Source: an uncultured delta proteobacterium (GTDB taxonomy: Bacteria; Desulfobacterota; Binatia; Binatales; Binataceae). From it: a DNA stretch of 64,000 nucleotides. The position numbers were made by a program, and so were the translations under genes. The notes under the pieces are model-generated. The model ran no database searches, had not been told where the DNA came from, and saw nothing but the letters and a program-made list of their open reading frames with translations. Shown here in pieces: positions 18,884 to 34,806 of this stretch. The stretch spans positions 538,136-602,135 of the forward strand of contig CAVXXK010000003.1 of assembly GCA_963765675.1 (NCBI GenBank), in the 5' to 3' direction. The stretch's first letter is position 1. Each line of letters begins with the position of its first letter.

Positions 18884-19089
18884 CAAGTTTGCGTATTACC
18901 TGCGTTTCCAGCGGACCTGGCTGCGCCCCGGAGTGAAATACAGCAGGCGGCATGGATGCCTTCGACACCAGGATGAGCGGGACCTCGTTGGACGACCGGC
19001 TCGATCGATCCGGTGGGAGTGAAATGCACAGGACTCTTCGCGAGGTTGATCGGATTTTTGATTGGCCGGGCCGTTGTCGTGGCTTTCAT
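18883..19089 (-). CDS. Possible small protein (68 aa) coupled to rsmI
   Basis: AGGAG 8 nt before ATG (MKATTTARPIKNPIN...); its stop overlaps the rsmI ATG (TGATG); no recognisable family. Confidence 0.4.
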   Translation of the reverse strand: MKATTTARPIKNPINLAKSPVHFTPTGSIEPVVQRGPAHPGVEGIHAACCISLRGAARSAGNAGNTQT

Positions 19090-19180
19090 ACCGATTGCTC
19101 CTGGGTGGGGCAGATCAACGGATTGTGCGCCGGCGTATCGCGACATTACAATTGTTCGCGACACTATATCGAGGATCACG

Positions 19181-20044
19181 ATGGCCGCCGCCAAAGCTAC
19201 TTTGCTCATCGCATGCATCGACCGCCCGGGAATTATCGCCAGCGTGGCCGGGCATCTGTTCGCGCTCGATTGCAACATCATCACGTCGGATCAATACAGC
19301 GACGACGAGGACGGCCACTTCTTTTGGCGGATTCATTTCGAGAGCCTGAAACGTCCGATCGCGGACCTCGCGCACGATCTGAAAGCGTCGCTTCCGAAGT
19401 TGTTGCCATGGGAGCAACTGCGATGGCATCTGCACGACGCAGCGCGGCAGGACCGCATGGTGATCATGGTGTCGCGGCTCGGGCACTGCATGATCGATCT
19501 GCTGAGCCGGCATCACGCGGGCGAGCTCGACGCGGAGATCGTCGGGGTGATCAGTAACCATCCCGACCTCGAGCCGCTGGCGCGTCCATTCAACGTGCCG
19601 TTCGAGGTTATTCCGGTCGCGAAGGGCGCGAAGGCCGCGGCCGAGACTGCGCTGCTGGCGCGGCTTGCGGAGCTGCGCGCCGACACGGTGGTGCTCGCGC
19701 GATACATGCAGGTGCTGTCGGGCGATTTTCTGCGCGGATGGCAAAAGCCGATCGTCAATATCCATCACAGCTTCCTGCCGGCGTTCGCGGGCTCGCGTCC
19801 GTATCAGCAGGCGCGCGAGCGAGGAGTGAAGCTGATCGGCGCGACAGCGCATTACGTAACCGAAGAGCTCGACGCCGGGCCGATCATCGCGCAGGCGACG
19901 ACCGCGATCACGCATCGCGACACGGTCGCCGACCTGACGCGCAAAGGGAAGGACCTGGAGGTGATGGTGCTGGCCAAGGCGGTGCGGGCGCATCTTCGCA
20001 AGCAGGTTCTGACGCATCGCAACAGAACGATCGTGTTTGAGTAA
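19181..20044 (+). CDS. purU: Formyltetrahydrofolate deformylase
   Basis: ACT-domain C.DRPGIIA, VLARYMQVLS, NIHHSFLP, GATAHYVT.ELDAGPII. Confidence 0.95.
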   Translation: MAAAKATLLIACIDRPGIIASVAGHLFALDCNIITSDQYSDDEDGHFFWRIHFESLKRPIADLAHDLKASLPKLLPWEQLRWHLHDAARQDRMVIMVSRLGHCMIDLLSRHHAGELDAEIVGVISNHPDLEPLARPFNVPFEVIPVAKGAKAAAETALLARLAELRADTVVLARYMQVLSGDFLRGWQKPIVNIHHSFLPAFAGSRPYQQARERGVKLIGATAHYVTEELDAGPIIAQATTAITHRDTVADLTRKGKDLEVMVLAKAVRAHLRKQVLTHRNRTIVFE

Positions 20045-20396
20045 TTTGCTAATCGAAACGCCGTTATAATGGTGGGTTCGTTTGGGCGATTTTCGGTTGA
20101 AGGAAAATTGGAATAGCTGGTAGACGCTGAATAATTTTGTCAGCTCGATTAGTTCGTTCGGGGTTCGCGCGAAATGCGAATCCAGTCATCTCTCGGCCGG
20201 AAACAAACGGGTTGGTTCGCGTTTTCCGAATCACAAGATTCAGATTTTGGTGACGCGGTTCCACATGGACATTATTGCATGAAATGGGAATCCGCATAAA
20301 GGCTGAACAGTTCAGCCATGAACAAATCTGGCAAAAAATCTAACGATCGTTAGGGTCGAGTTGCGCCCTCGCCCGCGTCTGGTCCCTCGCCCACAA

Positions 20397-20482
20397 GAGG
20401 GTGTCGATAAATGGCGAGTTCTTTTCCGTCATCCTTCGCCTGCGGCTCAGGATGACACCAACGGAGCGTCTGCGAGAAAATC
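20397..20482. repeat. MITE/REP-like element end (family B) with internal GTCATCCT...AGGATGAC palindrome
   Basis: 20397-20435 matches 45660-45698 at 35/39 nt; both are followed by GCGAGAAAATC. Confidence 0.65.
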
Positions 20483-20589
20483 ATCAGCCGCCAGAATGGA
20501 TGAAGGTTGGGTGATGAACGGCGTGCGTCGCCGTACCTACGCGCGCAGCGGTCTCTCAAAAACTAAAGTGTCACTTTAATTCCACCAGG

Positions 20590-21264
20590 TCACTTCAATT
20601 CAACCAGCACCTGCCGGATGCGGCCCGCGCCGGAGTTGTGGAATTTGCGCCCTGCCCCGCGCGGATACCACGCGACGCTCCCCGCCGGCATGGCGGTGCG
20701 CTGCGCGCTGTCGCGCCCGGCGTCGGCGCGCTCGACGACTTCGAGCTCGCCGCCCTCGGCGACGTAGGCGACCGCGTCGTGCGAGTAGCGGCGCATCGCG
20801 CTCTCCGCGCCGGGAGCGAGCGTGATTTCGCTGACGCGGACGCGGTCGTTGTCGAGAATCGTGATCGTTCCCGGTTCCGGCTCGCGCCCCGCAACCGCTT
20901 CGCATCCGACGAAGCCCAGGCGCTCGGCGCCGCGCTTTGCGGGCCGCTTGAGCTCGAACAGCGCTTCATGAAAGCGCGTGGTGCCGACGTTGTGCGCGCT
21001 CTCGATACCGCCGGCCGGCACGAAGTAGGTCGCACGCGCGTGCAGCGGAAGGCCGCGCGGCTTCCCGCCCGGAGGATTCTCGCCGCGGCGCAGCGCGCCG
21101 ACCGACGCGCTCGACAGGATGAACAGCACGTAGTCGAGCGTATGGTGATGCAGCCCGCAGACCTCGCCCGGCTGCAGATCCATCTCCCACACGCGCACGT
21201 CGTCGTTCTCAAAAAGCGTGCGAGTCGCGACCGGTCCCAGTTGCTCGGCTTGTGCTGCGCCCAT
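20590..21264 (-). CDS. Tandem cupin-domain protein
   Basis: Two repeats: LFENDDVRVWEMDLQPGE..GLHHH and ILDNDRVRVSEITLAPGA; each ends H-N-x-G...ELK. Confidence 0.75.
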   Translation of the reverse strand: MGAAQAEQLGPVATRTLFENDDVRVWEMDLQPGEVCGLHHHTLDYVLFILSSASVGALRRGENPPGGKPRGLPLHARATYFVPAGGIESAHNVGTTRFHEALFELKRPAKRGAERLGFVGCEAVAGREPEPGTITILDNDRVRVSEITLAPGAESAMRRYSHDAVAYVAEGGELEVVERADAGRDSAQRTAMPAGSVAWYPRGAGRKFHNSGAGRIRQVLVELK

Positions 21265-21266
21265 CT

Positions 21267-21482
21267 CTATTGCTCCTCTTCATAGCATCCGCGGCCCGGG
21301 CCGCAGGAGTCTGTATCGGCAGGCTCGCCGTCGGGTCCGTACGGACGCTGAGTGTTCAGGCAGGTATAGCACGCGGTGGTGCTGTCGGGATCAAACATCC
21401 GCGCGCCCTCGGGAGTGCGATAGTACGCAGTCTTGGTGCGGAGCAGTCCGCAGAATTGGTGCGTCGCTATTGCGGTAGCCAT
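21267..21482 (-). CDS. Small Cys-rich hypothetical protein (71 aa, 5 Cys)
   Basis: GGAGG RBS within the end of the upstream gene; gaps of 5 and 2 nt to neighbours; C..LRTK..Y...CYTC..TQ...GPDG...C.PGRGCY. Confidence 0.75.
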   Translation of the reverse strand: MATAIATHQFCGLLRTKTAYYRTPEGARMFDPDSTTACYTCLNTQRPYGPDGEPADTDSCGPGRGCYEEEQ

Positions 21483-21487
21483 CGTGC

Positions 21488-22474
21488 TTACACCTCCGCG
21501 ACTCCGCCTGCGGCCAGGATTGCGCGGCGCACAATCACCTTCGCGATCGTGACCTTGTAGGCGTTATCCGACATCGGCTGTGCCGTCGCAAGGGCAGCGT
21601 CGGCGGCGGCGCGCGCGCGTGCGGCGTCCAGCGGAGCGCCGATGATCGCTTTCTCGGCATCCGGCGCGCGCCACGGAATCGGAGCGACGGCGCCCATCAC
21701 GATCCGCGCGTCGCGAACCGATTTGCCGTTTGGAACTATCACGACCGCGACGCTCGCCAGCGGCCAGTCGAAGCTCTGCTTCTCGCGCACTTCAAGGTAG
21801 GTGCTGCGAGTGCCGGACGCAGGCGCGGGCACGATAACCTCGGTGATTATCTCGCCGGCGCGCAAATCATTTTCGCGCTTCGGATCGACTTCGGGCAGCG
21901 TGAAGAATTTCTCGAGCGCGACTGTGCGCTCGCCCGCAGGCCCTGCTATTCGCGCGCTCGCACCGAACGCGACCAGCGCGGGCGCGAGGTTCGAGGGATG
22001 CACGATATACGACGGGCCGCCGCCGAGGATCGCGTGATAGCGATTGAGCCCGCCGATCGAGTAGCACTTGTCGCCGCCTTTTTTGAGGCAGACCGTCAGC
22101 GGATTGCGGAAATACCAGCATCGCGGACGCTGCAACAGATTTCCGCCGACGGTGCCGAGGTTGCGAATCTGCGGCGTGGCCGCTTCGCCGGCAGCGTCGG
22201 AGATCGCGGTGAAACGTTTTTGAATTTCGGGATTGGTCGCGACCTCGTGCAGTTTCACCAGCGCTCCCAGGCGCATCGAACCGTCAGGCTGAAACTTAAT
22301 TCCTTCAAGCTCCGGCAAACCCTTCAGATTGACCAGCGTGGTGGGACTGGCGATGTCCTGCTTCATCAGATCGACGACGTCGACTCCGCCGGCTATCGCT
22401 CCGTGATTCGGCGCGGCGAGCATCGCGCTCGCGTGCGCAAGATCGGCAGGTGTGACGATCGTGAACTTGTTCAT
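21488..22474 (-). CDS. Xanthine dehydrogenase-family FAD-binding subunit (PaoB/YagS-like)
   Basis: IAGGVD..DLMK, ATPQIRNLGTVGGNLLQRPRCWYFR...C.KKGG.KC Cys insertion, GAVAPIPWRA, DNAYKV. Confidence 0.9.
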   Translation of the reverse strand: MNKFTIVTPADLAHASAMLAAPNHGAIAGGVDVVDLMKQDIASPTTLVNLKGLPELEGIKFQPDGSMRLGALVKLHEVATNPEIQKRFTAISDAAGEAATPQIRNLGTVGGNLLQRPRCWYFRNPLTVCLKKGGDKCYSIGGLNRYHAILGGGPSYIVHPSNLAPALVAFGASARIAGPAGERTVALEKFFTLPEVDPKRENDLRAGEIITEVIVPAPASGTRSTYLEVREKQSFDWPLASVAVVIVPNGKSVRDARIVMGAVAPIPWRAPDAEKAIIGAPLDAARARAAADAALATAQPMSDNAYKVTIAKVIVRRAILAAGGVAEV

Positions 22475-24690
22475 CACGCATGCCCTACCGCGGCGAGAAT
22501 TTTGTCGGGCGTCAGCGGCAACTCGCGCATCGGAGCGCCCACCGCGTCGCTGACCGCGCACGCGACGGCAGCGGCGCTCGCGACGTGCGCAACCTCGCCG
22601 ATTCCGAGCACGCCGGTGTTGGTACCGCCATTCATCACGTCGAGGAACATCACGTCGATTCGCGGAACGTCGAGCGAGCCGACCATTTTGTAATCGTCCA
22701 TGGTCGGATTCATCATCAGGCCGAGATTCGGGTCCATCCGGCGGTCTTCAAACAGCGCAAATCCGATTCCCATCAGCACGCCGCCATTGATCTGGCTGCG
22801 CGAGGTCATTGGATCGATAATTGTGCCCGCATCATGCACCGCGACCACGCGCTTGACGCGCACCACACCGGTCTCGGTATCGACTTCGACCTCGGCGAAT
22901 TGGCATCCGGCCTGATCGGGCCGATAAGAGGCGTAGTTCGGAATCCGGTCGCCGCCGGCGGAAATTGAATCGCCGGGAATACGGCGGCACAGATCTTTGA
23001 ACGCGACTTTTCTTGACGGATCGAAGCGCACGCGAATTGTGCCGTCGCGCGCTTCGAGGTCCGATGGTTCCGCCCCGAGCATCGGCGCCGCCATCTTGAA
23101 CAGCTTGTCCTTCAGATGCGCCGCGGCCTGGCGGATCGCGGGCGTGTTCGAGGGCGAGCTCATGCTGCCGCCCGACGGCAGCGAGAACGGATAGCGCGTG
23201 TCGCCGATCTCGGTGGAAATCTGTGCGATCGGGAGGCCGAGCTCCTCGGCCGCAACGACGGCGAGCGCGGTCCGGGTGCCGGTGCCGATATCCTGCGTGC
23301 CGCAGCGAATCTCGACGCGGCCATCGCGATGCGCGATCGCTAGCGCTTCCGGCCCCGAGGCTCCGAGCGCGTGCCATGCGGCGCACGCGACGCCGGTTCC
23401 GCGGCGGAGGGGGCCGCCGGATTTTTTCGCGGCGCCGTCTTTTCGCGCTGCGCTGTCTGGGGTCCATCCAAAGGCGCGCGCGCCGAGTTCGAGCTCGATC
23501 GCGCGGACAGGATTGATATTGTTCGCGCGGCGGAACTCCAGCCGATCGATCCCGGCCTTGCGCGCCATTTCGTCCATCGCCATTTCCAGCGCGAACGTGC
23601 CCTGCGGCCATCCGGGCGCTCGCATCGGCGACGACGGGCCGGTGTTCATATAGACGTTGGTTTCGGAAGTGCGAACGTTAGCACATGGATAGACCAGCTT
23701 GAATGGACCTGAGCTACCCGATCCGCCGCCGATTCCGCCGCTGCCGCGCTGTACGAGATCGATAGCGACCAGCTTGCCTTTCGCATCGGTGCCCATGCGG
23801 ACTTTCTGCTCGGAGCAGGGACGATTTCCCGTCGCCAGATGCTCGTCGCCGCGGGGCAGCATCAGCTTGACCGGCGCTCCCGATTCTTTGGCGAGGCGTG
23901 CGGCAATCACAATGTCCGGGGTCGCGCCGAATTTCGATCCGAAGCCGCCGCCGAGATACTCGCTGATCACGCGGACCTTGTCGGGCGCAAGATTGAACAG
24001 GACCGCAAGGTCGTCGCGCACTGAGAACACGCCCTGCGTCGAGCACCATACCGTGAGCGCGCCACCGTCGAATTGGGCGACCGCGCCGTGCGTTTCGAGC
24101 GAGACGTGCGTCTGCACCGGAGTCGTGTAGGTTGCCTCGATTCGATTCGCAGCCTGCGAGAGTCCATGCTCGACGTCGCCCTCGCTCGAGGTTTTTGCGG
24201 CACCCACGTTCGAGCCGCTGAATACGCTCGGCGCGCCGGCGGCGGCCGCGGCGTCCATCTCGACGACGAACGGCAGCGGGTCGTAGTCCACCTTGATCAG
24301 GCGAATCGCGTCGGCAGCGATATCGGAACTGGTGGCGGCGACGGCGGCGACCTCTTGTCCGGCAAAGCGAAGCTCACCCTCAGTGACCTGAAGCGCGGCG
24401 CGCACTCCGGCAAGGCGCTTCGCGGCAGAAAGATCGACGCTCTTCACGTGCGCTCGAGGATAGGGGCTTCGCAGAATCGCGCCGTAGAGCATCCCAGGGA
24501 GGGCGATATCGTAGGTGTAATGCGCGGTGCCGGTGGCTTTGGCGGGGCCATCAACCCGAGGAGTTTCTACGCCGACGATTGTGAATTTGTCGCCGAGCTG
24601 CCACGGGGTCGGCTCGTCGTCGGGAATCACGACGGTGACCTCGCGCGGCGCCTGAGGGATTCCGAGATTCACCGTCACGCGCCGCGACAT
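22474..24690 (-). CDS. Xanthine dehydrogenase-family molybdopterin-binding subunit (PaoC/YagR-like)
   Basis: RVDG..KATG.A.Y, GGGFGSK, MRAPG, QDIGTGT, EVEVD.ETG, SQINGG, GIGE. Confidence 0.92.
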   Translation of the reverse strand: MSRRVTVNLGIPQAPREVTVVIPDDEPTPWQLGDKFTIVGVETPRVDGPAKATGTAHYTYDIALPGMLYGAILRSPYPRAHVKSVDLSAAKRLAGVRAALQVTEGELRFAGQEVAAVAATSSDIAADAIRLIKVDYDPLPFVVEMDAAAAAGAPSVFSGSNVGAAKTSSEGDVEHGLSQAANRIEATYTTPVQTHVSLETHGAVAQFDGGALTVWCSTQGVFSVRDDLAVLFNLAPDKVRVISEYLGGGFGSKFGATPDIVIAARLAKESGAPVKLMLPRGDEHLATGNRPCSEQKVRMGTDAKGKLVAIDLVQRGSGGIGGGSGSSGPFKLVYPCANVRTSETNVYMNTGPSSPMRAPGWPQGTFALEMAMDEMARKAGIDRLEFRRANNINPVRAIELELGARAFGWTPDSAARKDGAAKKSGGPLRRGTGVACAAWHALGASGPEALAIAHRDGRVEIRCGTQDIGTGTRTALAVVAAEELGLPIAQISTEIGDTRYPFSLPSGGSMSSPSNTPAIRQAAAHLKDKLFKMAAPMLGAEPSDLEARDGTIRVRFDPSRKVAFKDLCRRIPGDSISAGGDRIPNYASYRPDQAGCQFAEVEVDTETGVVRVKRVVAVHDAGTIIDPMTSRSQINGGVLMGIGFALFEDRRMDPNLGLMMNPTMDDYKMVGSLDVPRIDVMFLDVMNGGTNTGVLGIGEVAHVASAAAVACAVSDAVGAPMRELPLTPDKILAAVGHA

Positions 24691-25361
24691 CACGCACTCC
24701 CCTTCGCGCCGCCGTTGGTGCGCGCGACGTGGAGCGCGGCCGCGAACACATGAGGATAAGTTCCGCAGCGGCAGATATTTCCCGCGACCGATTGACGGAT
24801 CGTGTCCAGTTCGGCGGCGGGATTTTGCTTGAGCGCCGCCGCGATCGACATCACCATCCCCGGCGTGCAGAATCCGCACTGCATCGCGTCGGCGTGCACG
24901 AACGCGTCCTGCACCGGATGCATCCGGTCAGGATTTCCGAGTCCTTCGATCGTCGTGACCTCGTGGCCGCGCGCGTCGACCGCCAGCATCATGCAGGACG
25001 TGACCGGCTGCCCGTCGAGATGAACAGTGCAGGCGCCACACGATCCGCGATCGCAGACCAGCTTGGTGCCGGTCATCCCCAGATGCTCGCGCAGGGCGCG
25101 GACCAGGGTCACGCGCGGCTCGACCGCGAGGTGGTGAGTGGCGCCATTTATTTTGAGCTCGATATCGACCGGTCCGGGACCGAGTTGTTCCGCGGCGCCT
25201 TCGGGAAGTGCTGGCGCGGACGCCTGGGCGTGCGTGAGATGACCGAGCGTGGCGACGGCAGCAACAGCGCCGGCGCTGGTAAGCGCGGCGCCCTTCAGGA
25301 AGGATCGGCGACTCAATGGCAGCTTGCGCGGATCTTTGTCTTTTCCGGATTTCGATTTCAT
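24690..25361 (-). CDS. Tat-exported (2Fe-2S) subunit (PaoA/YagT-like)
   Basis: SRRSFLK twin-arginine leader; GTKLVCDRGSCGACTV, QCGFCTPG, NICRCG. Confidence 0.92.
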   Translation of the reverse strand: MKSKSGKDKDPRKLPLSRRSFLKGAALTSAGAVAAVATLGHLTHAQASAPALPEGAAEQLGPGPVDIELKINGATHHLAVEPRVTLVRALREHLGMTGTKLVCDRGSCGACTVHLDGQPVTSCMMLAVDARGHEVTTIEGLGNPDRMHPVQDAFVHADAMQCGFCTPGMVMSIAAALKQNPAAELDTIRQSVAGNICRCGTYPHVFAAALHVARTNGGAKGSA

Positions 25362-25867
25362 TGAGGAGCCTCGCGCGGCGCGGGAGCGGCAATCGAGACC
25401 GCCATCGCGACGATCGCGAATATCGCGAGTCCGGCTATGAGCCCGAAGAAAAGTACCTTAAGAAAGTAAACGCCCGCGATCAGAAGCTTGTCAACGATCG
25501 AACTCATCGCATAGGTGTCAAACGAATTCGCTCCCGTCCATCCGAGCTGGCCGAGTGCCGCGCCGAGCCGCGCGAGCGGGATCAGCACGATCACGCCGGC
25601 GATCACGGAAATCGCCGCAGTGCGGCCGCGCAGCGCGGCGTCGTCGAGCAGTCGCGCGCCAATTCGAATCGCGATGAGCATTCCCAGCGCGGCCGCCGCA
25701 AAGATCATCAGCGCAAATTCGTGCTCGTTCCACCATCGTCCGAGCGGAGGATCCATGTATCGGACAACCAGGTGGGCGCCGCTGCCGTAGCTCAACGTCG
25801 AGATGATTCCGGCCACCAATGCGATGATGGTGAGCCATCGCAGCCATCTTTGGTAGGCCGGCTTCAT
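25358..25867 (-). CDS. Hypothetical integral membrane protein (about 4 TM)
   Basis: Four hydrophobic stretches; ATGA overlaps with both neighbours. Confidence 0.7.
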   Translation of the reverse strand: MKPAYQRWLRWLTIIALVAGIISTLSYGSGAHLVVRYMDPPLGRWWNEHEFALMIFAAAALGMLIAIRIGARLLDDAALRGRTAAISVIAGVIVLIPLARLGAALGQLGWTGANSFDTYAMSSIVDKLLIAGVYFLKVLFFGLIAGLAIFAIVAMAVSIAAPAPREAPQ

Positions 25868-26340
25868 CCGATCGCGATCGGTCCCGCGACGCGGGTCAGT
25901 CCCAGCGACAGGTAGACGATAAGGAGCACGATCATCCCCTGCGTGAGACCCACGCGGCGGAAGCGCGCCAGCAGAGGAGGCAGATCGGGCGCGGGGCCGT
26001 TTTCCGAGACGCGCCAGATTCGCGCACCGAGATTTGCGTACTGATAAATCGCAAGACCGATCACGATCACGACCAGGACCAGCTTGATCGCAAGCAGGAC
26101 GCTTATCGCGCCGATATACAGCACGTTGAGCATCCCGGTTGCGACCAGGATCACAAGCGCGCTCAGTACGATCACGCCCAGGCGCCGAACGACACGCCGC
26201 ACTACTTTGACTCGCGCGGCGGGCTCGAGCTCTCCGGCCAGGATCGGAGTGAGCGCAAAGGTGCTGAAGAGAGAACCGCCGAGCGCGACGATCACCGCGG
26301 TCACGTGGATGAATAAGATCAGTAGGCGCATGCTCAGCAT
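25864..26340 (-). CDS. CopD/DUF4149-like 4-TM membrane protein
   Basis: LFIHV.A...ALGGSLF in the first helix, LVATG, LAIKLVLV; family call tentative. Confidence 0.6.
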   Translation of the reverse strand: MLSMRLLILFIHVTAVIVALGGSLFSTFALTPILAGELEPAARVKVVRRVVRRLGVIVLSALVILVATGMLNVLYIGAISVLLAIKLVLVVIVIGLAIYQYANLGARIWRVSENGPAPDLPPLLARFRRVGLTQGMIVLLIVYLSLGLTRVAGPIAIG

Positions 26341-26352
26341 CGCGGACTTCGC

Positions 26353-27450
26353 TCAGAGATTGCGGCGGTAGGTGACAAAATTTCCCGAGATATGCGCGCC
26401 CAGGCTCTCCGCCGTTCGGCGCGAGGCCCAGTTGTCGTCGAGCACGAGAGTGTAGCCGGCGTAGCGCATCCGCTGCTCCGCCATCTTGAGGTACGAGCGC
26501 GACGCCATCGCAGTTGCGATTCCGCGGCCGCGCGCGCTTTCCTTCACGCCGATATTGATCAGCGCGCCGCGCGTGCCGCCGCCGCGATGCGGCTCCAGGC
26601 GGACGCCGCGCCTGACCTGCGCGAGCATCGGACTCAAATCCGGCACCGAGAACACCGCGCCGACCGCTTCATCGTCAATCTCGGCCAGCATCGAAAGGTC
26701 GGCCGCCGGGCTTTCCCACAGCGACATCAGCATCGGGCGCACTTCCGTCTTGGTGACGGGATTCCATCCCCAATGACGCGCGAAAGCGGCATTAGTCACT
26801 TCGGTCCAGGCGTCGATCGCGGCAAGAAATCCGAACTCGCGCCAGCTCTTGATCGTGACGCCTGCCGCGGCGGCTGCCGCAACCGATCGGCGATAGCGCT
26901 CGAGCAGCTCGGGACTCAACTCGGCTGTGTAATCGGTCTGCCCTTTCTCCGTTTCGAAGCCCGCGCGTTTGAAGCATCGATGGTAATACGGCGGATTGCC
27001 GCGGAGCAGAAAGGAAGGCAGCCGCCCGTATCCGTCGACGGCGTATGGATAATCAAGGAACGCGGCGAAGCCGCTGCGCGCCGCTTTCATCCCGCGTGCG
27101 CCGAGAGACTCCGCCGCGGCTTCGAGCATCGCAACGGCGGCATCCTCTTCGCCCTCGTAGGCTTCAAAATGGATTAGCTGTCCGAGCTGCTCGCCCCAGT
27201 GTTCGATATAGCGGCGATTAACGACCGCACTGACCCGCGCGACCATCCGCCCGCGCCGGCGCGCGCAAAATGCTTCCAGATCGAGGTAGGCCGCGAAATG
27301 CGTGCGGCGCGTGATCATGTCGATCTCGCTCTGAATATCGGGCGGCCACCATGCTTCGCGCGCCGCGTAAACATGATACGGCAGGCGCGCAAATTCCTCG
27401 CATCCATCGCGCGTGGCAACGCGCTCGATCGTTATCCCCGTGCCGTTCAT
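26353..27450 (-). CDS. Double-GNAT acyltransferase, YghO/bacterial ceramide-synthase(bCerS)-like
   Basis: LPY.VY....WWPP, VARVSAVVN, HFEA, VDGY...PSF....NPPYY.....AGF, AF..HWG..P, IGVK...RGRGIA, VLDDN. Confidence 0.7.
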   Translation of the reverse strand: MNGTGITIERVATRDGCEEFARLPYHVYAAREAWWPPDIQSEIDMITRRTHFAAYLDLEAFCARRRGRMVARVSAVVNRRYIEHWGEQLGQLIHFEAYEGEEDAAVAMLEAAAESLGARGMKAARSGFAAFLDYPYAVDGYGRLPSFLLRGNPPYYHRCFKRAGFETEKGQTDYTAELSPELLERYRRSVAAAAAAGVTIKSWREFGFLAAIDAWTEVTNAAFARHWGWNPVTKTEVRPMLMSLWESPAADLSMLAEIDDEAVGAVFSVPDLSPMLAQVRRGVRLEPHRGGGTRGALINIGVKESARGRGIATAMASRSYLKMAEQRMRYAGYTLVLDDNWASRRTAESLGAHISGNFVTYRRNL

Positions 27451-28322
27451 GAATCTCGCGCGGTGCGTCGGCGCCCCCGCGCGTCAAGCTTAGCACCGGT
27501 GCGCGCAGAATGAGCATCGGCGACAATCCCGTCGCGCAGCCATCGCGCGAGCATCGCATTGATCGCGGCAACCGGATCATGCTCCGGTGTCTTGCCGGCG
27601 AAGGCCGCGCAGATTGCGCCGAATGTCGCGCCGCGCCGAAGCTTCGCGATCGCACGCGCTTCGCAAGCGTCCAGCTCGCGAAAAAGGACTTTCGCCTCGC
27701 GCCGCCAAACCAGGATCGTGCTCAGACCTCGCGCGGGCGCCTTGAGCTTTCTTCCGGCCACGAACGTGCGCAGTGCGAGCGCGACTTGCCACTGCGTTTC
27801 GAGCACCTGCAATGCCGCGATCGCACGCATCCGTACGCTCGTCCACGCTTCGGGCGTGATCGCGCGCATCGTTTCGGCGTCGAGAGGCACAGTATCGCGA
27901 GCGCAGAAGACCTCGACGATCGCGCGCTCGAGCGCGGCAAGATCCGCGATATAAGGATACTCGCGGCGAATCGGATGCATACGCAGACAATCTGCGAGAT
28001 ATTTCCCCACCCAGAACACCGACGCCTCAGTTGGCGGATACTCAGTCAGATATCCAGTCACGAGATTGTGAAAATTGTCTTCTCCGAGCGCCGCGGCGAC
28101 CGCCGGGAAATCCTCTTTGAGGACCTCCAACAGGCGAAAGAAGTACATATTGGCGTAGATATCCAGTCGCTCGACGGCCGTCATGCGCGGATCGCCGCCG
28201 ATCACCGCGTCGAGTCCGCCGCGCGCAACGCCGCGCTCGTGCTCGAGACCTTCCGCTACGCCGCCGGGCACCGCGATAAGCCGATAGAGGAGAGCTTGAG
28301 TGTTCTTAAGCTGGAGCGGCAT
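27447..28322 (-). CDS. DUF2063 MNIO partner protein (BufC/HvfC-like)
   Basis: ERLDIYANMYFFRL.E.L.EDFP.V...LG..NF, Y....PP, DLA.LE; directly follows DUF692. Confidence 0.88.
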   Translation of the reverse strand: MPLQLKNTQALLYRLIAVPGGVAEGLEHERGVARGGLDAVIGGDPRMTAVERLDIYANMYFFRLLEVLKEDFPAVAAALGEDNFHNLVTGYLTEYPPTEASVFWVGKYLADCLRMHPIRREYPYIADLAALERAIVEVFCARDTVPLDAETMRAITPEAWTSVRMRAIAALQVLETQWQVALALRTFVAGRKLKAPARGLSTILVWRREAKVLFRELDACEARAIAKLRRGATFGAICAAFAGKTPEHDPVAAINAMLARWLRDGIVADAHSARTGAKLDARGRRRTARDS

Positions 28323-29169
28323 GAATCGTCGCGGATTTGGTATGCGCGGATTCGTAGATACGACGCGCACGCTCAGCGGCGGCGGCCAGCACCGGGAACG
28401 CCGGGATGTTATCGTCCCATTCGATCAAGGTTGATACCGCGCCGAAGCGGCGAACCGCGCGCTCGTATAGCATCCACACCTCATCGCGGATCGGATAGTC
28501 ATGCGTGTCGAGCAGGTAGTCGCCGTGGTCACTGTGGCCGGCGAGATGAAATTGCACGACCCGCTCGGACGGTATCGAGTCAATATACACTTCAGCGCGG
28601 AAGCGATGGTTGAATGCATTTACAAATATATTGTTGATATCGAGCAGAATTCCGCAGTCGGCTTCCTCGGCGACCGCGCGGATGAATTCCCACTCGGTCA
28701 TCGTCGAGTCGCGAAACGTAAGATAGCGCGACACGTTCTCGATCAGTATGTAGCGACCCAGGATGTCCTGCACTCGGCGGATTCGCGCGGCTACGTGGCG
28801 CACCGTTTCCTCGTTATGCGGAAGCGGCAGCAGGTCGTGCAGGCGATGCCCGCCCACGCCGCTCCAGCATAGATGGTCCGATATCCATGCGGGCGGGGTG
28901 CGGCGGGCGAGGGCGCGCAGGCCGCGAAGATATGGGAGATCAAGCGGGTCGGTCGAGCCGATCGACATCGACACTCCGTGCATCACGACCGGGTAGTGCG
29001 CGCACACGGCGTCGAGGACCTCGAGCGGACGGCCGCCGGCAACCATGAAGTTTTCCGAAATGACTTCGAACCAGTCGATCGCGGGATGTCGCTTCAGAAT
29101 ATGCACATAATGCGGCCGGCGCAGACCAACCCCGAAGCCCAGAAACGGAAAATCCTCGCGCTGAAACAT
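28306..29169 (-). CDS. DUF692 multinuclear non-heme iron oxidative enzyme (MNIO; BufB/HvfB-like)
   Basis: GVGLRRPHY, WFEVISENF, HGVSMSIG, SDHLCW, DLLPLP, ENVS.Y, LLDINN, HLAGH, DTH, EWD. Confidence 0.95.
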   Translation of the reverse strand: MFQREDFPFLGFGVGLRRPHYVHILKRHPAIDWFEVISENFMVAGGRPLEVLDAVCAHYPVVMHGVSMSIGSTDPLDLPYLRGLRALARRTPPAWISDHLCWSGVGGHRLHDLLPLPHNEETVRHVAARIRRVQDILGRYILIENVSRYLTFRDSTMTEWEFIRAVAEEADCGILLDINNIFVNAFNHRFRAEVYIDSIPSERVVQFHLAGHSDHGDYLLDTHDYPIRDEVWMLYERAVRRFGAVSTLIEWDDNIPAFPVLAAAAERARRIYESAHTKSATIHAAPA

Positions 29170-29203
29170 AAAGCCAAGCCGGCTACACGACGTCGAGCGA
29201 GTT

Positions 29204-29476
29204 CTAGTCCGCCTTGGCGGCGTGGCCACCCTGCTTCACGCACTGCTGCGCGCTCGAAGTCATCACGTAGCCTTTGCCCTTACAGGAGTTCTGACCAGCG
29301 CATCCGCTCGAGGCGGTTTTGCACGCGCTCTGGCCCTTGCACGCATTGCCGCCTACGCATTTCACTTGCGCCGGCGCCGTTCCCGATCCAGCGCTGTCGG
29401 CCGCCATCGCGCTGCCGGTGAACATCAAGGCGACGGCGGTCGCGAGCATCGCACCGCCCAATGCTGATTTTCTCAT
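29204..29476 (-). CDS. Secreted Cys-rich RiPP precursor, bufferin BufA2-type
   Basis: AAGGAG RBS; Sec signal ending AMA; core KCVGGNACKGQSACKTASSGCAGQNSCKGKG...C (6 Cys); 34 nt upstream of DUF692. Confidence 0.9.
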   Translation of the reverse strand: MRKSALGGAMLATAVALMFTGSAMAADSAGSGTAPAQVKCVGGNACKGQSACKTASSGCAGQNSCKGKGYVMTSSAQQCVKQGGHAAKAD

Positions 29477-29583
29477 GAGTGATTCTCCTTAATCGCGATC
29501 GCGCGATGCCATCTTACCTACGGTCTCCAGTTCACGCCAAGGTATCGCAAACAAGGTGCCTGGTGATCTATCGTCGCGACTCG

Positions 29584-30396
29584 ATGAGTACGCAAGCATA
29601 TCGCTCGCCGTGGCCCGGAACTGCGGGAAGCCGCACCGCGCTGTTCTCGATCGGCGCCGGAATCGCGCTGATGTTCCTGGTAGGGCCGCTGGTCAAGCTC
29701 GTGGTGACGAGCAATCCGCGCGGTCTGCTCAATTCCTTTGCCGACCCCGAGGTCATGAGCGCGATCGGACTCAGCGTGCTCGCGGCAACGTGGGCGACCG
29801 CGCTCGGAGCGCTCATCGGACTTCCGCTCGGCTTCCTGCTCGCGCGGCATAGCTTTGCGGGCAAGCCGCTGGTCGAGGGGCTGATCGATCTGCCGGTGGT
29901 GATTCCGCATCCGATCGCCGGAATCGCGCTACTGTTCGTATTCGGACGCGGCTTTTTTGTCGGGCACACGTTTTCGATGATGGGAATCCATTTCGCCGGC
30001 GCAATTCCGGGAATCGTGATCGCGATGCTGTTCGTCTCGGCGCCGTTTCTGATCAACGCCGCGCGCGACGGCTTTGCCGCCGTCGATCCGCGGCTCGAAG
30101 GCGTTGCGCGCACGCTCGGGCGCGGTCCGTGGGCGGTCTTTTTTGGCGTCACGATTCCGCTGGCGCGGCCGTCGATCGTCTCGGGCGCGGTCATGATGTG
30201 GGCGCGGGCGCTCAGCGAGTTCGGCGCGGTGGTGGTGCTGGCGTACTATCCGATGACGGCGCCGGTGCTGATCTACGATCGCTTCGAGGGCTTCGGCCTC
30301 GACGCCGCGCAGCCGGTCGCCGCAGTGGTGGTGATCGTGGCGCTCGCGATCTTCGCTGCTCTAAGATGGCTGAACGTGCGCGCGCAGACGTCGTGA
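29584..30396 (+). CDS. Molybdate/tungstate ABC transporter permease (ModB/WtpB-like)
   Basis: LARHSFAGK..VE.LIDLPVVIPH.IAGIALL, EAA loop LEGVARTLG, WARALSEFGAV. Confidence 0.85.
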   Translation: MSTQAYRSPWPGTAGSRTALFSIGAGIALMFLVGPLVKLVVTSNPRGLLNSFADPEVMSAIGLSVLAATWATALGALIGLPLGFLLARHSFAGKPLVEGLIDLPVVIPHPIAGIALLFVFGRGFFVGHTFSMMGIHFAGAIPGIVIAMLFVSAPFLINAARDGFAAVDPRLEGVARTLGRGPWAVFFGVTIPLARPSIVSGAVMMWARALSEFGAVVVLAYYPMTAPVLIYDRFEGFGLDAAQPVAAVVVIVALAIFAALRWLNVRAQTS

Positions 30397-30417
30397 CGGT
30401 GTTGGTCCGCCGGGAAT

Positions 30418-31893
30418 CTAGCGGCGGGCGGCGGCGAGCATCTCGCCGCGGTCGGCGGCGTCGAACAGATGCAACTGATGCGGAGAGCCTCCGGCCGGTA
30501 TCTCGACCGGATATTTCCCGGTGAAGCAGGCGTCGCAGTAGCCCTCGCGATTTCCGTTGCCGACGAACGAGTACAGTCCTTCCCAGCTCAGGTAGCCGAG
30601 CGAGTCGGCGCCGATCCATCGCCGGATCTCCTCGACCGAGTGCGACGACGCGAGCAGCTCTTCGCGGGTCGGCGTGTCGATTCCGTAGAAGCACGAGTTG
30701 GTCGTGGGCGGCGCCGCGATTCGCATGTGGACTTCGCGCGCGCCCGCCTGCCGCAGCATCGGGATCACCTTGCGCAGCGTGGTTCCGCGCACCAGCGAAT
30801 CCTCGATCAGCACGATTCGCCTGCCGCGCAGCAGCTCTGCGACCGGGTTGAATTTGATCTTGACGCCGAAGTGCCGGATCGACTGGCGCGGCTCGATAAA
30901 CGTCCGGCCGACGTAATGGCTTCGGACCAGCGCCATCTCGAACGGGATCTTCGATTCTTCAGCATAGCCGAGTGCGGCCGCGGTGCCCGAGTCGGGCACC
31001 GGCACGACCAGGTCGGCCTCGGCGGGACACTCGCGCGCGAGCGCCCTGCCCTGCTGCTTGCGCACCGAATAGACATTGCGGCCGTAGAGCAGGCTGTCGG
31101 GCCGCGCAAAGTAAACATACTCGAAGATGCATCGCTTGGGTCCGGCGGGAGCGAACGGGCGCATCGAGCGCAGGCCGTTTTCGTCGACGATCACCATCTC
31201 GCCCGGCTCGATCTCGCGCACGTACTCGGCGCGGACCAGGTCGAGCGCGCAGGTCTCCGAGCTGACGATGGTCGCGCCGTTGAGCGTGCCCAGCACCAGC
31301 GGCCGAAAGCCGTGAGGATCGCGCACCGCGATCAGGCTTTTCTCCGTCAGCAACACCAGGGAGTACGCACCGCGCACCTGCGCCAGCGCCTCGATCAATT
31401 TTTCGGGCAGCGTGGCCGCGCGCGAGGCCGCGATCAGATGAATCACGATTTCGCTGTCCGACGACGAATAGAAAATCGTGCCGCCCGCTTCGAGCTGCTC
31501 GCGCAGCTCCTCGAAGTTGACGATATTGCCGTTGTGCGCGACCGCGAGGCCGCCTTTGGAGTATTCGACCACGATCGGCTGGCAGTTCTTGAGCGAGCTC
31601 GATCCCGTCGTCGAATAGCGGTTGTGGCCGATTGCGCTGGTGCCTTCGAGCTCAGCGATAATGCCGGAATTGAACACGTCCGCGACCAGGCCCATCCCGC
31701 GATGCGAGATTAACGCCTTGCCGTTGGAGGAAACGATTCCGGCCGACTCCTGCCCGCGATGCTGCAGCGCATACAGCCCCAAGTACGCCAGGTTGGCGGC
31801 CTCAGGATGGCCGTACACGCCGAAGACGCCGCACTCGTCGTGGAAGGCGTCGAGTTTCGATTCCTCGACTATCACCGCGCCGTCGTCAGTCAT
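30418..31893 (-). CDS. purF: Amidophosphoribosyltransferase
   Basis: ECGVFG propeptide site, [40 protein letters not shown]. Confidence 0.96.
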
Positions 31894-34123
31894 GGCTGGC
31901 TAGCCTCCGGGGAATTGCGGCTTCGTAAAGCTCGTACAACTCGTTTATGTTCTCGTTCACGGCTGGCGGGAGTGCGAGCCGCGGTTCAGCAAGCACGCGT
32001 CCGGCTTGATACACCGGCAATCGGCGGCCCGAGAATATCCGCGTCACCGCCGCGACTTGTTGCGGTGCGGCGGAGATCACTACGGTCGAAGGTCCTTCTC
32101 CAAACAATTCCACCGTATCGGCCAAGCCGTGCGCCGACAGATCAAGCTCAGCGCCCAGCCTCGCCTCGGGATTGAAACAGGCTTCCGCGATCGCCACCGC
32201 GAGCCCGCCTTCGGCTGCGTCGTGACATGATCTTATCAACCCGTGGTCAGCGCATTCAACCAGCCCTTCGAGCAGGGCATTTTCGCGCGCCAGATCGATC
32301 GGACTGAGCGCCTCGTCGCTGTCGCCGTACATCGCGGCGTACTCCGACGCGGCGAGCGACGGCCGCACCGTGCGGACGATCAGAATCGCATCGCCGGCGC
32401 GCTTGAAATGCGAGGTGACGTGATGCGCGACGTCGGTGAGCAAGCCGACTACCGCGATCGTCGGAGTCGGCGGAATCGCGCGGCCTTCGGTCTCGTTGTA
32501 GAAACTCACGTTGCCGCTCACGACGGGCGCTCCGATCGCGCGCGCCGCGTCGCCGAGGCCGCGCACGCCCTCGGCGAATTGCCACATGATCTCGGGCCGC
32601 TCGGGATTTCCGTAGTTGAGGCAATTCGTGATTCCGACCGGTCGCGCGCCGACGCATGCGACATTGCGCGCCGCCTCGATCACGGTCGCGACCGCGCCGG
32701 CGTAGGGATCGAGCGCGCACGCGCGAGGATTTGAATCGACCGTGAGCGCGATCGCGCGCCGCGATCCTTTGATCCGCAACACCGCCGCGTCACCGCCCGG
32801 CCCGCGCACCGTATTGCTCTGCACGATCGAATCGTACTGGCGATAGACCCATCTTTTCGACCCGATGTTCGGATTCGAGAGCATCGCTCGCAGCGCCGCC
32901 GCGGGCGTGGGATCGTCGCGGCGGTTACGCGCGGGATTCTTTTGCGGAGATTTCGGCGGATGCGCGGGGCGATCGTAAACCGGAGCGTCGTCGGCGAGCG
33001 CGCCGGCCGGAATATCGGCGACGACTTGTCCGCGCCATCGCGCACGCCATCGACGGTCGGCGGTGATTTCGCCAATTACGACCGCGTGCAGATCCCATTT
33101 CTCGAACACCGCCTGCAACTCGGCTTCGCGTCCGCGCTCGGCGACGATCAACATCCGCTCCTGCGATTCCGAGAGCAGAATTTCATACGGGGTCAGGCTC
33201 TGCTCGCGCAGCGGAACCTTGTCGAGATCGAGATCGATCCCGAGTCCGCCGCGCGCCGCCATCTCGGAGGACGACGAGGTCAGTCCCGCCGCGCCCATGT
33301 CCTGAATCGCTACGATCGCGCCGGTCTTGCCGGCTTCGAGACAGGCCTCGATCAGCAGCTTTTCGGTGAACGGATCGCCGACCTGCACCGTAGGCCGCTT
33401 GGATTCGCTCTCGGCGTCGAACTCGGCCGAGGCGAGCAGCGACGCGCCGTGAATTCCGTCGCGGCCGGTCGCCGAGCCGACGTACAGGACCGGATTGCCG
33501 ACGCCGCGCGCCTTCGCGCTCCATAACCCTCCGGCGCGCGCGAGTCCGAGCGAGAAAGCGTTGACCAGGATATTGCCGTTGTACGCCGCGTCGAACATCA
33601 CCTCGCCCGCGACGGTCGGCACTCCGACGCAGTTGCCGTAGCCGCCGATTCCGCCGACCACGCCGCCGAGCAGGTAGCCGGTCCGCGGATGATCGAACGA
33701 TCCGAATTTCAGCGAGTTCATCGAGGCTACAGGCCGCGCGCCCATCGTGAAAATGTCGCGCAGGATTCCGCCGACGCCGGTCGCCGCGCCCTGATACGGC
33801 TCGACGTACGAAGGATGGTTATGGCTTTCGATTTTGAACACGGCGACCCATCCGTCGCCGAGGTCGATCGCGCCAGCATTCTCGCCCGGTCCGCCCTGCA
33901 CAACGAGCTCGCTCTTCTGCGGGAGCGTGCGCAGATATTTTCGCGACGATTTGTACGAACAGTGCTCCGACCACATGACCGAGAAGACACCCAACTCGGT
34001 AAAGGTCGCGACACGTCCGAGGATTTGTTTGACGCGCTCGAACTCCTCGGGAGAAAGGCCGTGCGCGCGAGCCTGCTCGAGATCGACTCGAGGCTCGCCG
34101 GGCAATGCGACAGGCGTCGTCAT
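31886..34123 (-). CDS. purL: Phosphoribosylformylglycinamidine synthase subunit PurL
   Basis: [49 protein letters not shown]. Confidence 0.97.
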
Positions 34124-34806
34124 GCGTGCTCTGCGATCGATTGAAAAATCTTGCGGCCGTCGGTGCCACCGAGCATCGCTTCGACCGCGTGCTCGGGATG
34201 CGGCATCAGGCCGAAGACATTGAAGCGCTCGTTGGCGACGCCGGCGATCGCGCGCATCGAGCCGTTGGGATTCGCGGCGTCGCTCTCGATGCCATCGGCG
34301 CCGCAGTAGCGCAGAATTATCTGCCCGCGCTCTTCCATCTGGCGCAGTTCATCTTCCGGCGCGACGTAGAGTCCCTCGCCGTGCTTGATCGGCAGATTGA
34401 GCACGTCGCCCTGGCGAGTCGCGCGAGTAAACGGAGTCTTCGCGTTTTCAACCCGCACATGGACCTGCTGGCAGATAAAGGAAAGTGAGCGGTTGCGCGT
34501 TAGCGCGCCGGGCAGCAGATGCGCTTCGCACAGAATCTGGAAGCCGTTGCACGTGCCGATCACCAGCCCGCCGTCGGCGGCAAATTTCTCGACGCTCTTC
34601 ATGATCGGAGAAAAGCGCGCGATCGCGCCGGTGCGCAGATAGTCGCCGTAGCTGAAGCCTCCCGGCAGCAGGACGCACTCGGCGCCGCCGAGCGACGTGT
34701 CCTTGTGCCACAGGATCGCGGCCTCCTGCCCCATCACTTCCACGAGAGCATAGAGGGCGTCACTGTCGTCGAGCGAACCGGGGAACCTGACGACGCCCCA
34801 CTTCAT
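34120..34806 (-). CDS. purQ: FGAM synthase glutaminase subunit
   Basis: [34 protein letters not shown]. Confidence 0.96.

Follow-up and report, generated by a model that had tools for sequence, protein, structure and literature searches.

The DNA analysed here is a 64-kb stretch (hereafter the window) from an uncultured soil bacterium of the family Binataceae. Its minus strand carries, at 20590-29476, eleven co-oriented open reading frames (ORFs): the three genes of a bufferin cluster (buf), the gene of a tandem GNAT acyltransferase, and seven genes that form a block around a xanthine-dehydrogenase-family enzyme resembling PaoABC (the pao block). Here, we describe these genes, the promoter-like elements that accompany them and their arrangement in related genomes, where the array is conserved as a neighbourhood of separable parts.

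Organization of the array

Families were assigned by scans against Pfam and NCBIfam, with bit scores compared with the curated cutoffs. An earlier interpretation of the locus, made from the letters alone (the sequence-only reading), had listed eleven genes with their families and ten junctions; the family scans and a recomputation of the junctions reproduced all of these exactly. Read from the sequence in order, the junctions are a 34-nucleotide (nt) gap, a 17-nt overlap, ATGA, a 12-nt gap, ATGA, ATGA, TGATG, TGATG, a 5-nt gap and a 2-nt gap. The same reading had noticed no obvious internal terminator, and the count bears it out: between 19000 and 31000 there are 12 terminator-like hairpins, compared with 9.4 +/- 3.1 in shuffled sequences, which is not above chance. 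With one strand, short or overlapping junctions and no internal terminator, the array looks like a single operon in three respects. In a fourth, the absence of internal promoters, it appears not to, as a conserved promoter-like motif lies inside bufC.

Two other possibilities were rejected. An Rfam scan of 19000-31000 (E up to 1) gave two matches far under the gathering scores, and a riboswitch or other Rfam RNA within the array was discarded. A signal of horizontal transfer in the base composition was likewise discarded, the G+C content being even (0.60-0.67) throughout the array.

The bufferin genes

Bufferins rank among the largest families of peptides that are made by ribosomes and modified after translation (RiPPs). 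The first gene of the array, bufA (29204-29476, minus strand), encodes a BufA2-type precursor of 90 amino acids with a Sec signal peptide and six core cysteines (NF050166, 73.8 bits against a cutoff of 60). An AGGAG lies 7 nt before its ATG, the signal-like N-terminus ends AMA/A, and the cysteine columns are conserved across 52 sequences. It is followed by bufB (28306-29169, minus strand), the gene of a 287-residue MNIO (DUF692) maturase (PF05114, E = 4.8e-109; NF050167, MNIO_BufB, 372.9 bits against 310), and by bufC (27447-28322, minus strand), which encodes a DUF2063 partner of 291 residues (PF09836, 58.5 bits against 27.2). BufC matches NGO1945_C weakly and stays under the level of the HvfC equivalog (NF050145, 50.7 bits against 142). 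A six-cysteine Sec precursor adjoined by a BufB-type MNIO and a DUF2063 protein constitutes a bufferin cluster of the Buf2, or BUF_6/12Cys, kind. By homology, the MNIO and its DUF2063 partner would convert the central cysteines of the exported precursor to thiooxazole-type groups, and these would chelate copper in the periplasm.

In the accessible text of PMC11626156, buf2 of Caulobacter vibrioides shares with this cluster a Sec precursor with six cysteines, an MNIO enzyme, a DUF2063 partner and the lack of DoxX; the missing DoxX is thus normal for Buf2. The bufA2B2C2 genes are described there as belonging to the SigF copper regulon, as copper-induced and as yielding a copper-protective peptide (PMC11626156). 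That cluster stands under an extracytoplasmic function (ECF) sigma factor, and most relatives of the window are likewise headed by an ECF sigma system. Three differences from the C. vibrioides system, as far as that text goes, can be named. The window and its closest relatives have no sigma pair; in the window the GNAT gene and the molybdoenzyme block continue on the same strand without a gap; and the relatives have, next to the cluster, an anti-sigma factor of the zf-HC2 type, the account of C. vibrioides naming NrsF near buf1.

A 2025 survey of MNIO clusters (PMC12452194) describes, in its accessible sections, bufferin clusters whose compact core of precursor, MNIO and DUF2063 is at times joined by DoxX, with further conserved genes only in ‘extremely low proportions’ of them. 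Sigma and anti-sigma genes are assigned there to Buf1 and not to Buf2 clusters, and an MNIO without a DUF2063-type partner is reported for 1 of 864 genomes with Buf_6-12Cys precursors (PMC12452194).

The tandem GNAT

The fourth gene (26353-27450, minus strand) encodes a cytoplasmic protein of 365 residues in which PF00583 is recognisable in the C-terminal half only (residues 242-351, 30.1 bits against 20.7). Its AlphaFold2 model, with a mean predicted local distance difference test (pLDDT) score of 82.8, has two GNAT-like halves in one chain, and the best Foldseek match is the tandem GNAT MAB_4324 (7q3a, E = 2.5e-14, TM-score 0.62). The same two-halved build is what it has in common with the other tandem GNATs retrieved, namely 3tt2, 2wpw from the clavulanic-acid pathway, the glucosamine N-acetyltransferase 5kf1 and the mycothiol synthase MshD (1ozp). 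Over this set the E-values run from 2.5e-14 to 4e-10 and the TM-scores from 0.53 to 0.62, at an identity of only 9-16%; a substrate cannot be transferred to the modelled protein from its structural relatives. The family extends across the Binataceae. Scoring of 7999 candidates gave 537 relatives with E up to 0.001; among the 120 matches listed, identity is 64-96%, and those with a name all belong to Candidatus Binataceae.

The molybdoenzyme block

An enzyme of the xanthine dehydrogenase family is encoded by the seventh to ninth genes, one each for its Fe-S, Mo and FAD subunits. The PaoA-like 2Fe-2S subunit (24690-25361, minus strand; Fer2_2, E = 4.6e-29) carries a twin-arginine translocation (Tat) signal, SRRSFLK (TIGR01409, 22 bits against 16.7). 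The PaoC-like molybdopterin subunit (22474-24690, minus strand; 738 residues; MoCoBD_1/2 and Ald_Xan_dh_C) and the PaoB-like FAD subunit (21488-22474, minus strand; 328 residues; FAD_binding_5, E = 4.8e-38, and CO_deh_flav_C) have no signal peptide, and no signal-like hydrophobic N-terminus was found in either. Because the Fe-S subunit alone carries a signal, the Mo and FAD subunits would be exported in its company, an arrangement consistent with hitchhiker export.

Among solved structures, the Mo subunit is closest to PaoC (5g5h_C, E = 8.5e-94, residues 27-733). The Fe-S and FAD subunits find their best solved relative in the three-subunit aldehyde oxidase 5y6q (5y6q_A, E = 3.1e-49; 5y6q_B, E = 1.2e-63), ahead of the E. 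coli chains 5g5g_A (E = 1.2e-44) and PaoB 5g5g_B (E = 9.8e-46). The match to 5g5g_A begins at residue 7 and includes the Tat region, and the 162-residue small-subunit chain of 5y6q aligns from query residue 66, past that region. We know of no membrane partners for the 5y6q aldehyde oxidase, and to our knowledge there is no settled view of which natural electron acceptor PaoABC uses.

With E. coli PaoABC(D) (5g5g/5g5h), as presented in the accessible parts of PMC4273604 and PMC3909100, the enzyme shares its division into 2Fe-2S, FAD and Mo subunits, of which just the Fe-S subunit has a Tat signal. Its scores fall far under the equivalog cutoffs (PaoC NF041671, 414.5 bits against 1180; PaoA NF008514, 180.8 against 322), and we therefore classify it, at the level of profile scores, as PaoABC-like and not as a PaoABC orthologue. 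Other differences from the E. coli system are the gene order, which is Fe-S, Mo, FAD, and the lack of a PaoD/XdhC-type chaperone gene among the 11 genes and the 42 other ORFs of the window, though one may be encoded elsewhere in the genome. The block also adds two membrane proteins, an orphan with five invariant cysteines and a bicupin.

The membrane proteins precede the enzyme. TMa (25864-26340, minus strand; 158 residues) has about four hydrophobic segments, with an invariant His12 in the first, and resembles the CopD/DUF4149 type. Its relatives match DUF4149 in 25 of 25 cases and CopD in 23 of 25 (E up to 0.01), and the window copy itself stays below both cutoffs (CopD, 23.3 bits against 32.1; DUF4149, 20.3 against 24.6). 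The likeness to CopD/DUF4149 proteins lies in the consistent family matches of the relatives and the invariant histidine. Unlike those systems, TMa is only about 158 residues long, is predicted to pair with an unrelated protein and has no CopC-like gene beside it. A literature search for work linking CopD/DUF4149 with molybdenum hydroxylases gave nothing relevant. TMb (25358-25867, minus strand; 169 residues) also has about four hydrophobic segments, and none of its 20 members matched Pfam.

Complex prediction supports a TMa-TMb heterodimer. The modelled pair scored 0.72, compared with 0.01 for the best control, with agreement between runs in at least 91% of contacts and a pLDDT of at least 77 for the partners. 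Among 157 solved complexes 116 come up to that mark, as do 2 among 215 mismatched pairs, counts that hold only roughly here because we used our own alignments. A search for fused forms of TMa that might point to its function turned up only four longer proteins. One of these, the single sequence P0241 of 1128 residues, joins a TMa-like N-terminus to Fer2 and MoCoBD and is either a real fusion of block genes or a gene-calling artefact.

Two small genes close the array. Cys71 (21267-21482, minus strand) encodes 71 residues without a signal peptide, with C11, C38, C41, C60 and C66 invariant. It matched nothing in Pfam or NCBIfam, its Atlas matches were unnamed and all below 0.9, and its AlphaFold2 model is not confident (pLDDT 42.4). 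We found 224 homologues, and every named one is from Binataceae or Binatales. The last gene (20590-21264, minus strand) encodes a cytoplasmic two-cupin protein of 224 residues, with Auxin_BP at 14-102 (27.9 bits against 21) and Cupin_2 at 147-216 (26.4 against 27.2).

Conservation and modularity in Binataceae

We scanned genomes with the GNAT as the junction gene, so that both blocks would be visible within 10 kb on each side. A GNAT relative is encoded on 315 stretches of species genomes, and the best 80 of the 315 were examined; all are Binataceae-type metagenome-assembled genomes, with GNAT identities of 65-98%. Synteny was established by tblastn with 15 window proteins (E up to 1e-5, at least 40% query cover). 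Seventeen loci were dropped for short flanks, leaving 63 that could be evaluated on both sides.

At 34 of these 63 loci, bufB and the Mo subunit both occur in the order of the window around the GNAT gene. Fifteen have buf only, five have the pao block only and nine have neither. The window is collinear over 20590-34200 with the genomes of four other species (L002-L005) at 87-92% DNA identity, and the array is therefore conserved and not a chance juxtaposition. Loci with both blocks are spread over all deep clades of a maximum-likelihood GNAT tree (81 rows, quick search), and on the same tree the state of buf changes at least 9 times and that of pao at least 11 times. The sequence-only reading had held that buf cores and pao-like blocks unlinked in relatives would undo its proposal of a coupled locus; they are linked too often and too widely for that, and at 20 of the 63 loci one of them stands alone.

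The loci share a backbone with variable insertions. It runs purL, purF, GNAT, DUF1329, a cyclase gene on the opposite strand and rpsF; between purF and GNAT it may take a modB-like gene, an anti-sigma and sigma pair on the opposite strand, and bufA, bufB and bufC, and after GNAT it may take the pao block, in the order TMa, TMb, Fe-S, Mo, FAD, Cys71 and optionally the bicupin. At the loci with neither block, some 100 nt separate purF from the GNAT gene, and DUF1329, the cyclase and rpsF come next. The GNAT gene is the fixed gene of a chromosomal site between purF and DUF1329/rpsF. An acylation of the peptide, entertained in the sequence-only reading, is weakened because the GNAT gene persists at 14 of 63 loci without buf, and acylation of the bufferin by this enzyme is unlikely.

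The genes of the pao block stay together. All 42 pao-positive loci have TMa, TMb and the Fe-S subunit, and Cys71 is present in all 35 of those with at least 7.5 kb of downstream sequence; the bicupin occurs in 15 of 35 with enough flank. The block is a fixed unit of six genes to which the bicupin is optional. Neither TMa nor TMb was seen at any locus judged to lack pao, including those with buf only.

The site also accepts other DNA. Inserts of about 1 kb separate GNAT from TMa at eight loci, with a DUF892 match in seven of the eight (in L028 a DUF892 gene on the minus strand), and L015 has a 3.7-kb insert with a minus-strand adenylate-cyclase/AAA gene at the same place. Between bufC and GNAT, nine loci have inserts of 1.2-3.3 kb, of which that in L042 is an IS110 transposase. 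A second copy of the GNAT 3' end stands before TMa at L009:2466-2666, and a second copy of the bicupin 3' end about 3 kb downstream at L004:19963-20323; these small duplications suggest traces of insertion events at unit borders.

Within the buf cluster itself, one clade (L058, L061, L062, L065, L069, L073, L077 and L078; for example L061:8738-9982) has bufA and bufB separated from GNAT by 76-454 non-coding bases. Neither a DUF2063 gene nor, by tblastn, a bufC remnant was found at these eight loci; a DUF2063 partner may be encoded elsewhere in the genome. Two further loci hold decaying clusters: bufA alone remains before GNAT at L067:9656-9928, and at L068:8962-9638 bufA is followed by a bufB fragment of 109 residues at 44% identity.

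Promoters and regulation

A sigma-70-like promoter candidate for bufA, recognised at the level of motif, lies at 29511-29540 on the minus strand and ends 35 nt before the ATG. It consists of TTGGCG, an 18-nt spacer and TAAGAT. The two hexamers are kept in the window, L002-L005, L007 and L008, with near variants in L006, and the spacer and flanks vary.

Most other loci are headed differently. A divergent ECF sigma and zf-HC2 anti-sigma pair, which in most relatives stands before bufA, is present at 43 of the 63 evaluable loci: 27 of 34 with both blocks, 13 of 15 with buf only, 2 of 5 with pao only (L021 and L050) and 1 of 9 with neither. The seven loci with both blocks and no such pair are exactly the clade of the window, L002-L008. 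In the sequence-only reading neither an ECF sigma nor DoxX flanked the bufferin core. This is correct for the window, where no DoxX, ECF sigma, modA/modC or XdhC gene was found among the 11 genes and the other 42 ORFs of the 64 kb, and for the sigma factor it is peculiar to this clade. Loci with the ECF pair have a common motif, GGAACC-N17-CGTTTAGAC, about 66 nt before bufA, in whose place the clade of the window appears to have the sigma-70-like TTGGCG-N18-TAAGAT. No ECF-type motif was found before GNAT or TMa in the relatives examined. At least 16 loci have GTTTASAC about 66 nt before bufA, an element absent there in the window.

Pairs of ECF and zf-HC2 genes on Buf2-type clusters can be seen at L017:6227-7734, L032:6254-7724, L060:4326-5856, L061:6524-8023 and L021:8341-10008. 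In many relatives the 5' leader of bufA (e.g. L019:7795-7862 and L033:7841-7907) contains, after the ECF-type motif, a hairpin-like stretch, GCCGAAGCTGTAGTAGTTTCGGC, which is absent in the clade of the window.

A second candidate promoter is internal. The extended -10-like motif TGCTAAGCT (27487-27495, minus strand) lies 37 nt before the GNAT ATG, inside the 3' tail of bufC, and could serve GNAT and the genes that follow. The 64-kb window has a single copy of it, compared with an average of 0.11 in shuffled sequences, and CCGGTGCTAAGCTTG is invariant in the window and L001-L005, with variable flanks. Within 120 nt of the GNAT start, 56 of the 80 loci have a motif of the TATAAG or TGCTAAGCT type, among them 43 of the 55 loci that have buf and 13 of the 25 that lack it; the background for either pattern is about 0.004 per 120 nt. 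An independent promoter inside the DUF2063 or GNAT gene was named in the sequence-only reading as an observation that would speak against its own proposal, and the motif gives such a promoter support at the level of sequence. At the loci with DUF892 inserts, a further common motif, TTGCCC-N16-GATACA, stands directly before TMa.

The same region bears on the ATGA overlap of bufC and GNAT, which had been taken as a sign of a fused operon. The overlap is better read as a bufC tail that has grown over the GNAT promoter region, because in L006-L008, whose bufC match stops 78-119 nt short of GNAT, the motif is intergenic, and in the window and L001-L005 the bufC frame runs across it.

Interpretation

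The array itself is confirmed as it was first observed, and the interpretation then given is partly supported. We think it probable that the array consists of three separable units, vertically inherited in Binataceae, that are often neighbours and at most co-expressed. The first would be the Buf2 cluster with its copper-chelating product. The second would be the cytoplasmic tandem GNAT, a fixed resident of the site that has its own promoter-like element also where the other units are missing. The third would be the six-to-seven-gene block for a Tat-exported PaoABC-type Mo/FAD/Fe-S oxidoreductase with the TMa-TMb pair, the five-cysteine protein and the optional bicupin. In the ancestral state, a divergent ECF sigma/zf-HC2 pair and an ECF-type promoter would have preceded bufA. 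The clade of the window would then have lost the pair and acquired a sigma-70-like promoter, its intergenic gaps would have collapsed and bufC would have extended across the old gap. Given that promoter and those collapsed gaps, transcription from the bufA promoter could plausibly continue through all eleven genes, and GNAT and the pao block probably also start transcription on their own. Any functional tie would be a facultative co-expression of periplasmic stress functions with no biosynthetic dependence. Of the coupling of bufferin and molybdoenzyme that had been proposed, the co-location stands; an obligate coupling does not, given the loci with one block or with neither.

Several points weigh against this reading. 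The comparison covers only the 80 most similar of 315 loci, 17 of which were dropped, and a block was scored as absent from the 10 kb around GNAT and may still exist elsewhere in the same genome. Buf and pao occur together more often than not; the uncorrected 2x2 odds ratio is 4.1 (Fisher p = 0.03), which could be explained by shared descent or by selection for linkage. An independent-pairs test on the GNAT tree found no co-variation among 4 pairs on supported branches (8 on all branches), but four usable pairs make it underpowered and are too few to exclude such co-variation. The promoter patterns were defined after seeing these sequences, and in the window no two genes of the array lie far enough apart to accommodate a terminator or a classical intergenic promoter. 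Finally, the ECF pair at the pao-only loci L021 and L050, and a permease gene that is found only with pao (11 of 11 evaluable loci, described below), hint at shared regulation or metal supply. On the present sequences, a functional coupling between the blocks is possible.

The alternative that makes most of this coupling is a single functional system, in which the copper-chelating bufferin protects, or manages metal for, the co-exported molybdoenzyme, with TMa, TMb and the permease in the same circuit under one stress signal. We consider it unlikely. It would account for the co-location in all deep clades with its uncorrected excess, for the stop/start codon overlaps of the window, for the CopD/DUF4149-like character of TMa and for an ECF pair that heads loci with both blocks, with buf only and, in two of five cases, with pao only, but just one of the nine with neither. 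The literature adds that bufferins protect against copper (PMC11626156, accessible text) and, as a rationale with no direct support, that Cu+ inhibits xanthine-oxidoreductase-family enzymes in vivo (PMC10434068, accessible text). Such a system does not explain why one block alone is found at 20 loci, why gains or losses appear independent on the GNAT tree, or why opposite-strand genes and an insertion sequence element lie between the blocks, with a separate TMa promoter-like motif in some lineages. The ECF-type motif is placed before bufA only, and TMa and TMb go with pao and never with buf alone.

A bolder form of this idea, which we regard as quite unlikely, is that in Binataceae the Buf2 bufferin, the tandem GNAT and a membrane-tethered PaoABC-type enzyme with TMa-TMb and the five-cysteine orphan form one envelope-stress island, originally under a single ECF sigma factor, in which the bufferin either shields the copper-sensitive Mo/Fe-S enzyme from copper or passes metal on to the CopD-like TMa. 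If true, no earlier case would exist of a RiPP metallophore that is dedicated to one partner enzyme.

At the opposite extreme, the units could be unrelated, packed by genome streamlining at an insertion-tolerant site and kept together by descent only. All four combinations of presence and absence do occur, the site also takes transposases, a cyclase gene and DUF892, buf remnants decay in L067 and L068, and the flanks are housekeeping genes. Against such a pure neighbourhood, the units retain their order and strand over GNAT identities of 65-98%, the distribution of the ECF pair follows that of either block, and the gaps in the clade of the window have been squeezed to overlaps and have not drifted apart; we hold it to be distinctly unlikely.

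Highly improbable is a role of the GNAT as a RiPP tailoring enzyme that acylates the precursor before export to give an N-acylated or lipidated bufferin: the gene does directly follow bufC (with the ATGA overlap in the window) or, at the eight bufC-less loci, bufB, and Foldseek places its tandem fold with N-myristoyltransferases and other acyl or aminoacyl transferases, but it occupies the same site at the 14 loci without buf, its promoter-like motif is present irrespective of buf, inserts part it from bufC at nine loci, and extra conserved genes are as rare in known bufferin clusters as the accessible part of the survey states (PMC12452194).

Three separable and at most co-expressed units thus remain our preferred reading, and the comparative data carry a caution: tight packing in one genome is not the same as one functional system.

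Relation to described systems

The architecture was said in the sequence-only reading not to be known from characterised systems, and a limited literature search agrees, having found no account in which a GNAT or an enzyme of the xanthine dehydrogenase family is linked to a bufferin cluster. In the accessible text of PMC12452194 the words acetyltransferase, GNAT, xanthine, cupin and Binat do not occur. What is new is the habitual buf-GNAT-pao neighbourhood across a bacterial family, the predicted TMa-TMb partner pair and the five-cysteine orphan of a PaoABC-type enzyme, and the ECF/zf-HC2 pair on a Buf2 cluster, which PMC12452194, in its accessible text, did not find for Buf2. The locus raises the questions of whether copper buffering and a copper-sensitive periplasmic Mo enzyme are co-regulated, and of what the TMa-TMb pair and the five-cysteine orphan do for a PaoABC-type enzyme.

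Neighbouring genes and the downstream border

Upstream, a lone WtpB/ModB-like ABC permease gene (29584-30396, plus strand; BPD_transp_1; WtpB NF040839, 293 bits against 340) diverges from bufA. As had been noted, it lies 107 nt from bufA, and the window contains neither modA nor modC to partner it. It recurs in 13 of the 80 loci (L002-L008, L010, L021, L050, L051, L055 and L067), again with no binding-protein or ATPase gene nearby. All 11 evaluable loci that have it are pao-positive, and it is found at 0 of 15 loci with buf only and 0 of 9 with neither block.

Downstream, the collinearity of the window with L002-L005 stops at 20510-20592. The bicupin stop codon is followed by a non-coding stretch of about 545 nt with lower G+C (20045-20589), where the window stops matching its relatives, and then by unrelated housekeeping genes. 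DUF1329, the cyclase gene and rpsF, which follow the array in relatives, are all absent from the 64 kb; the window has lost this downstream backbone.

Farther on, an ORF at 9990-12815 (plus strand), with no Pfam family at E up to 1e-5, encodes 941 amino acids and has a coding-like third-position G+C content.

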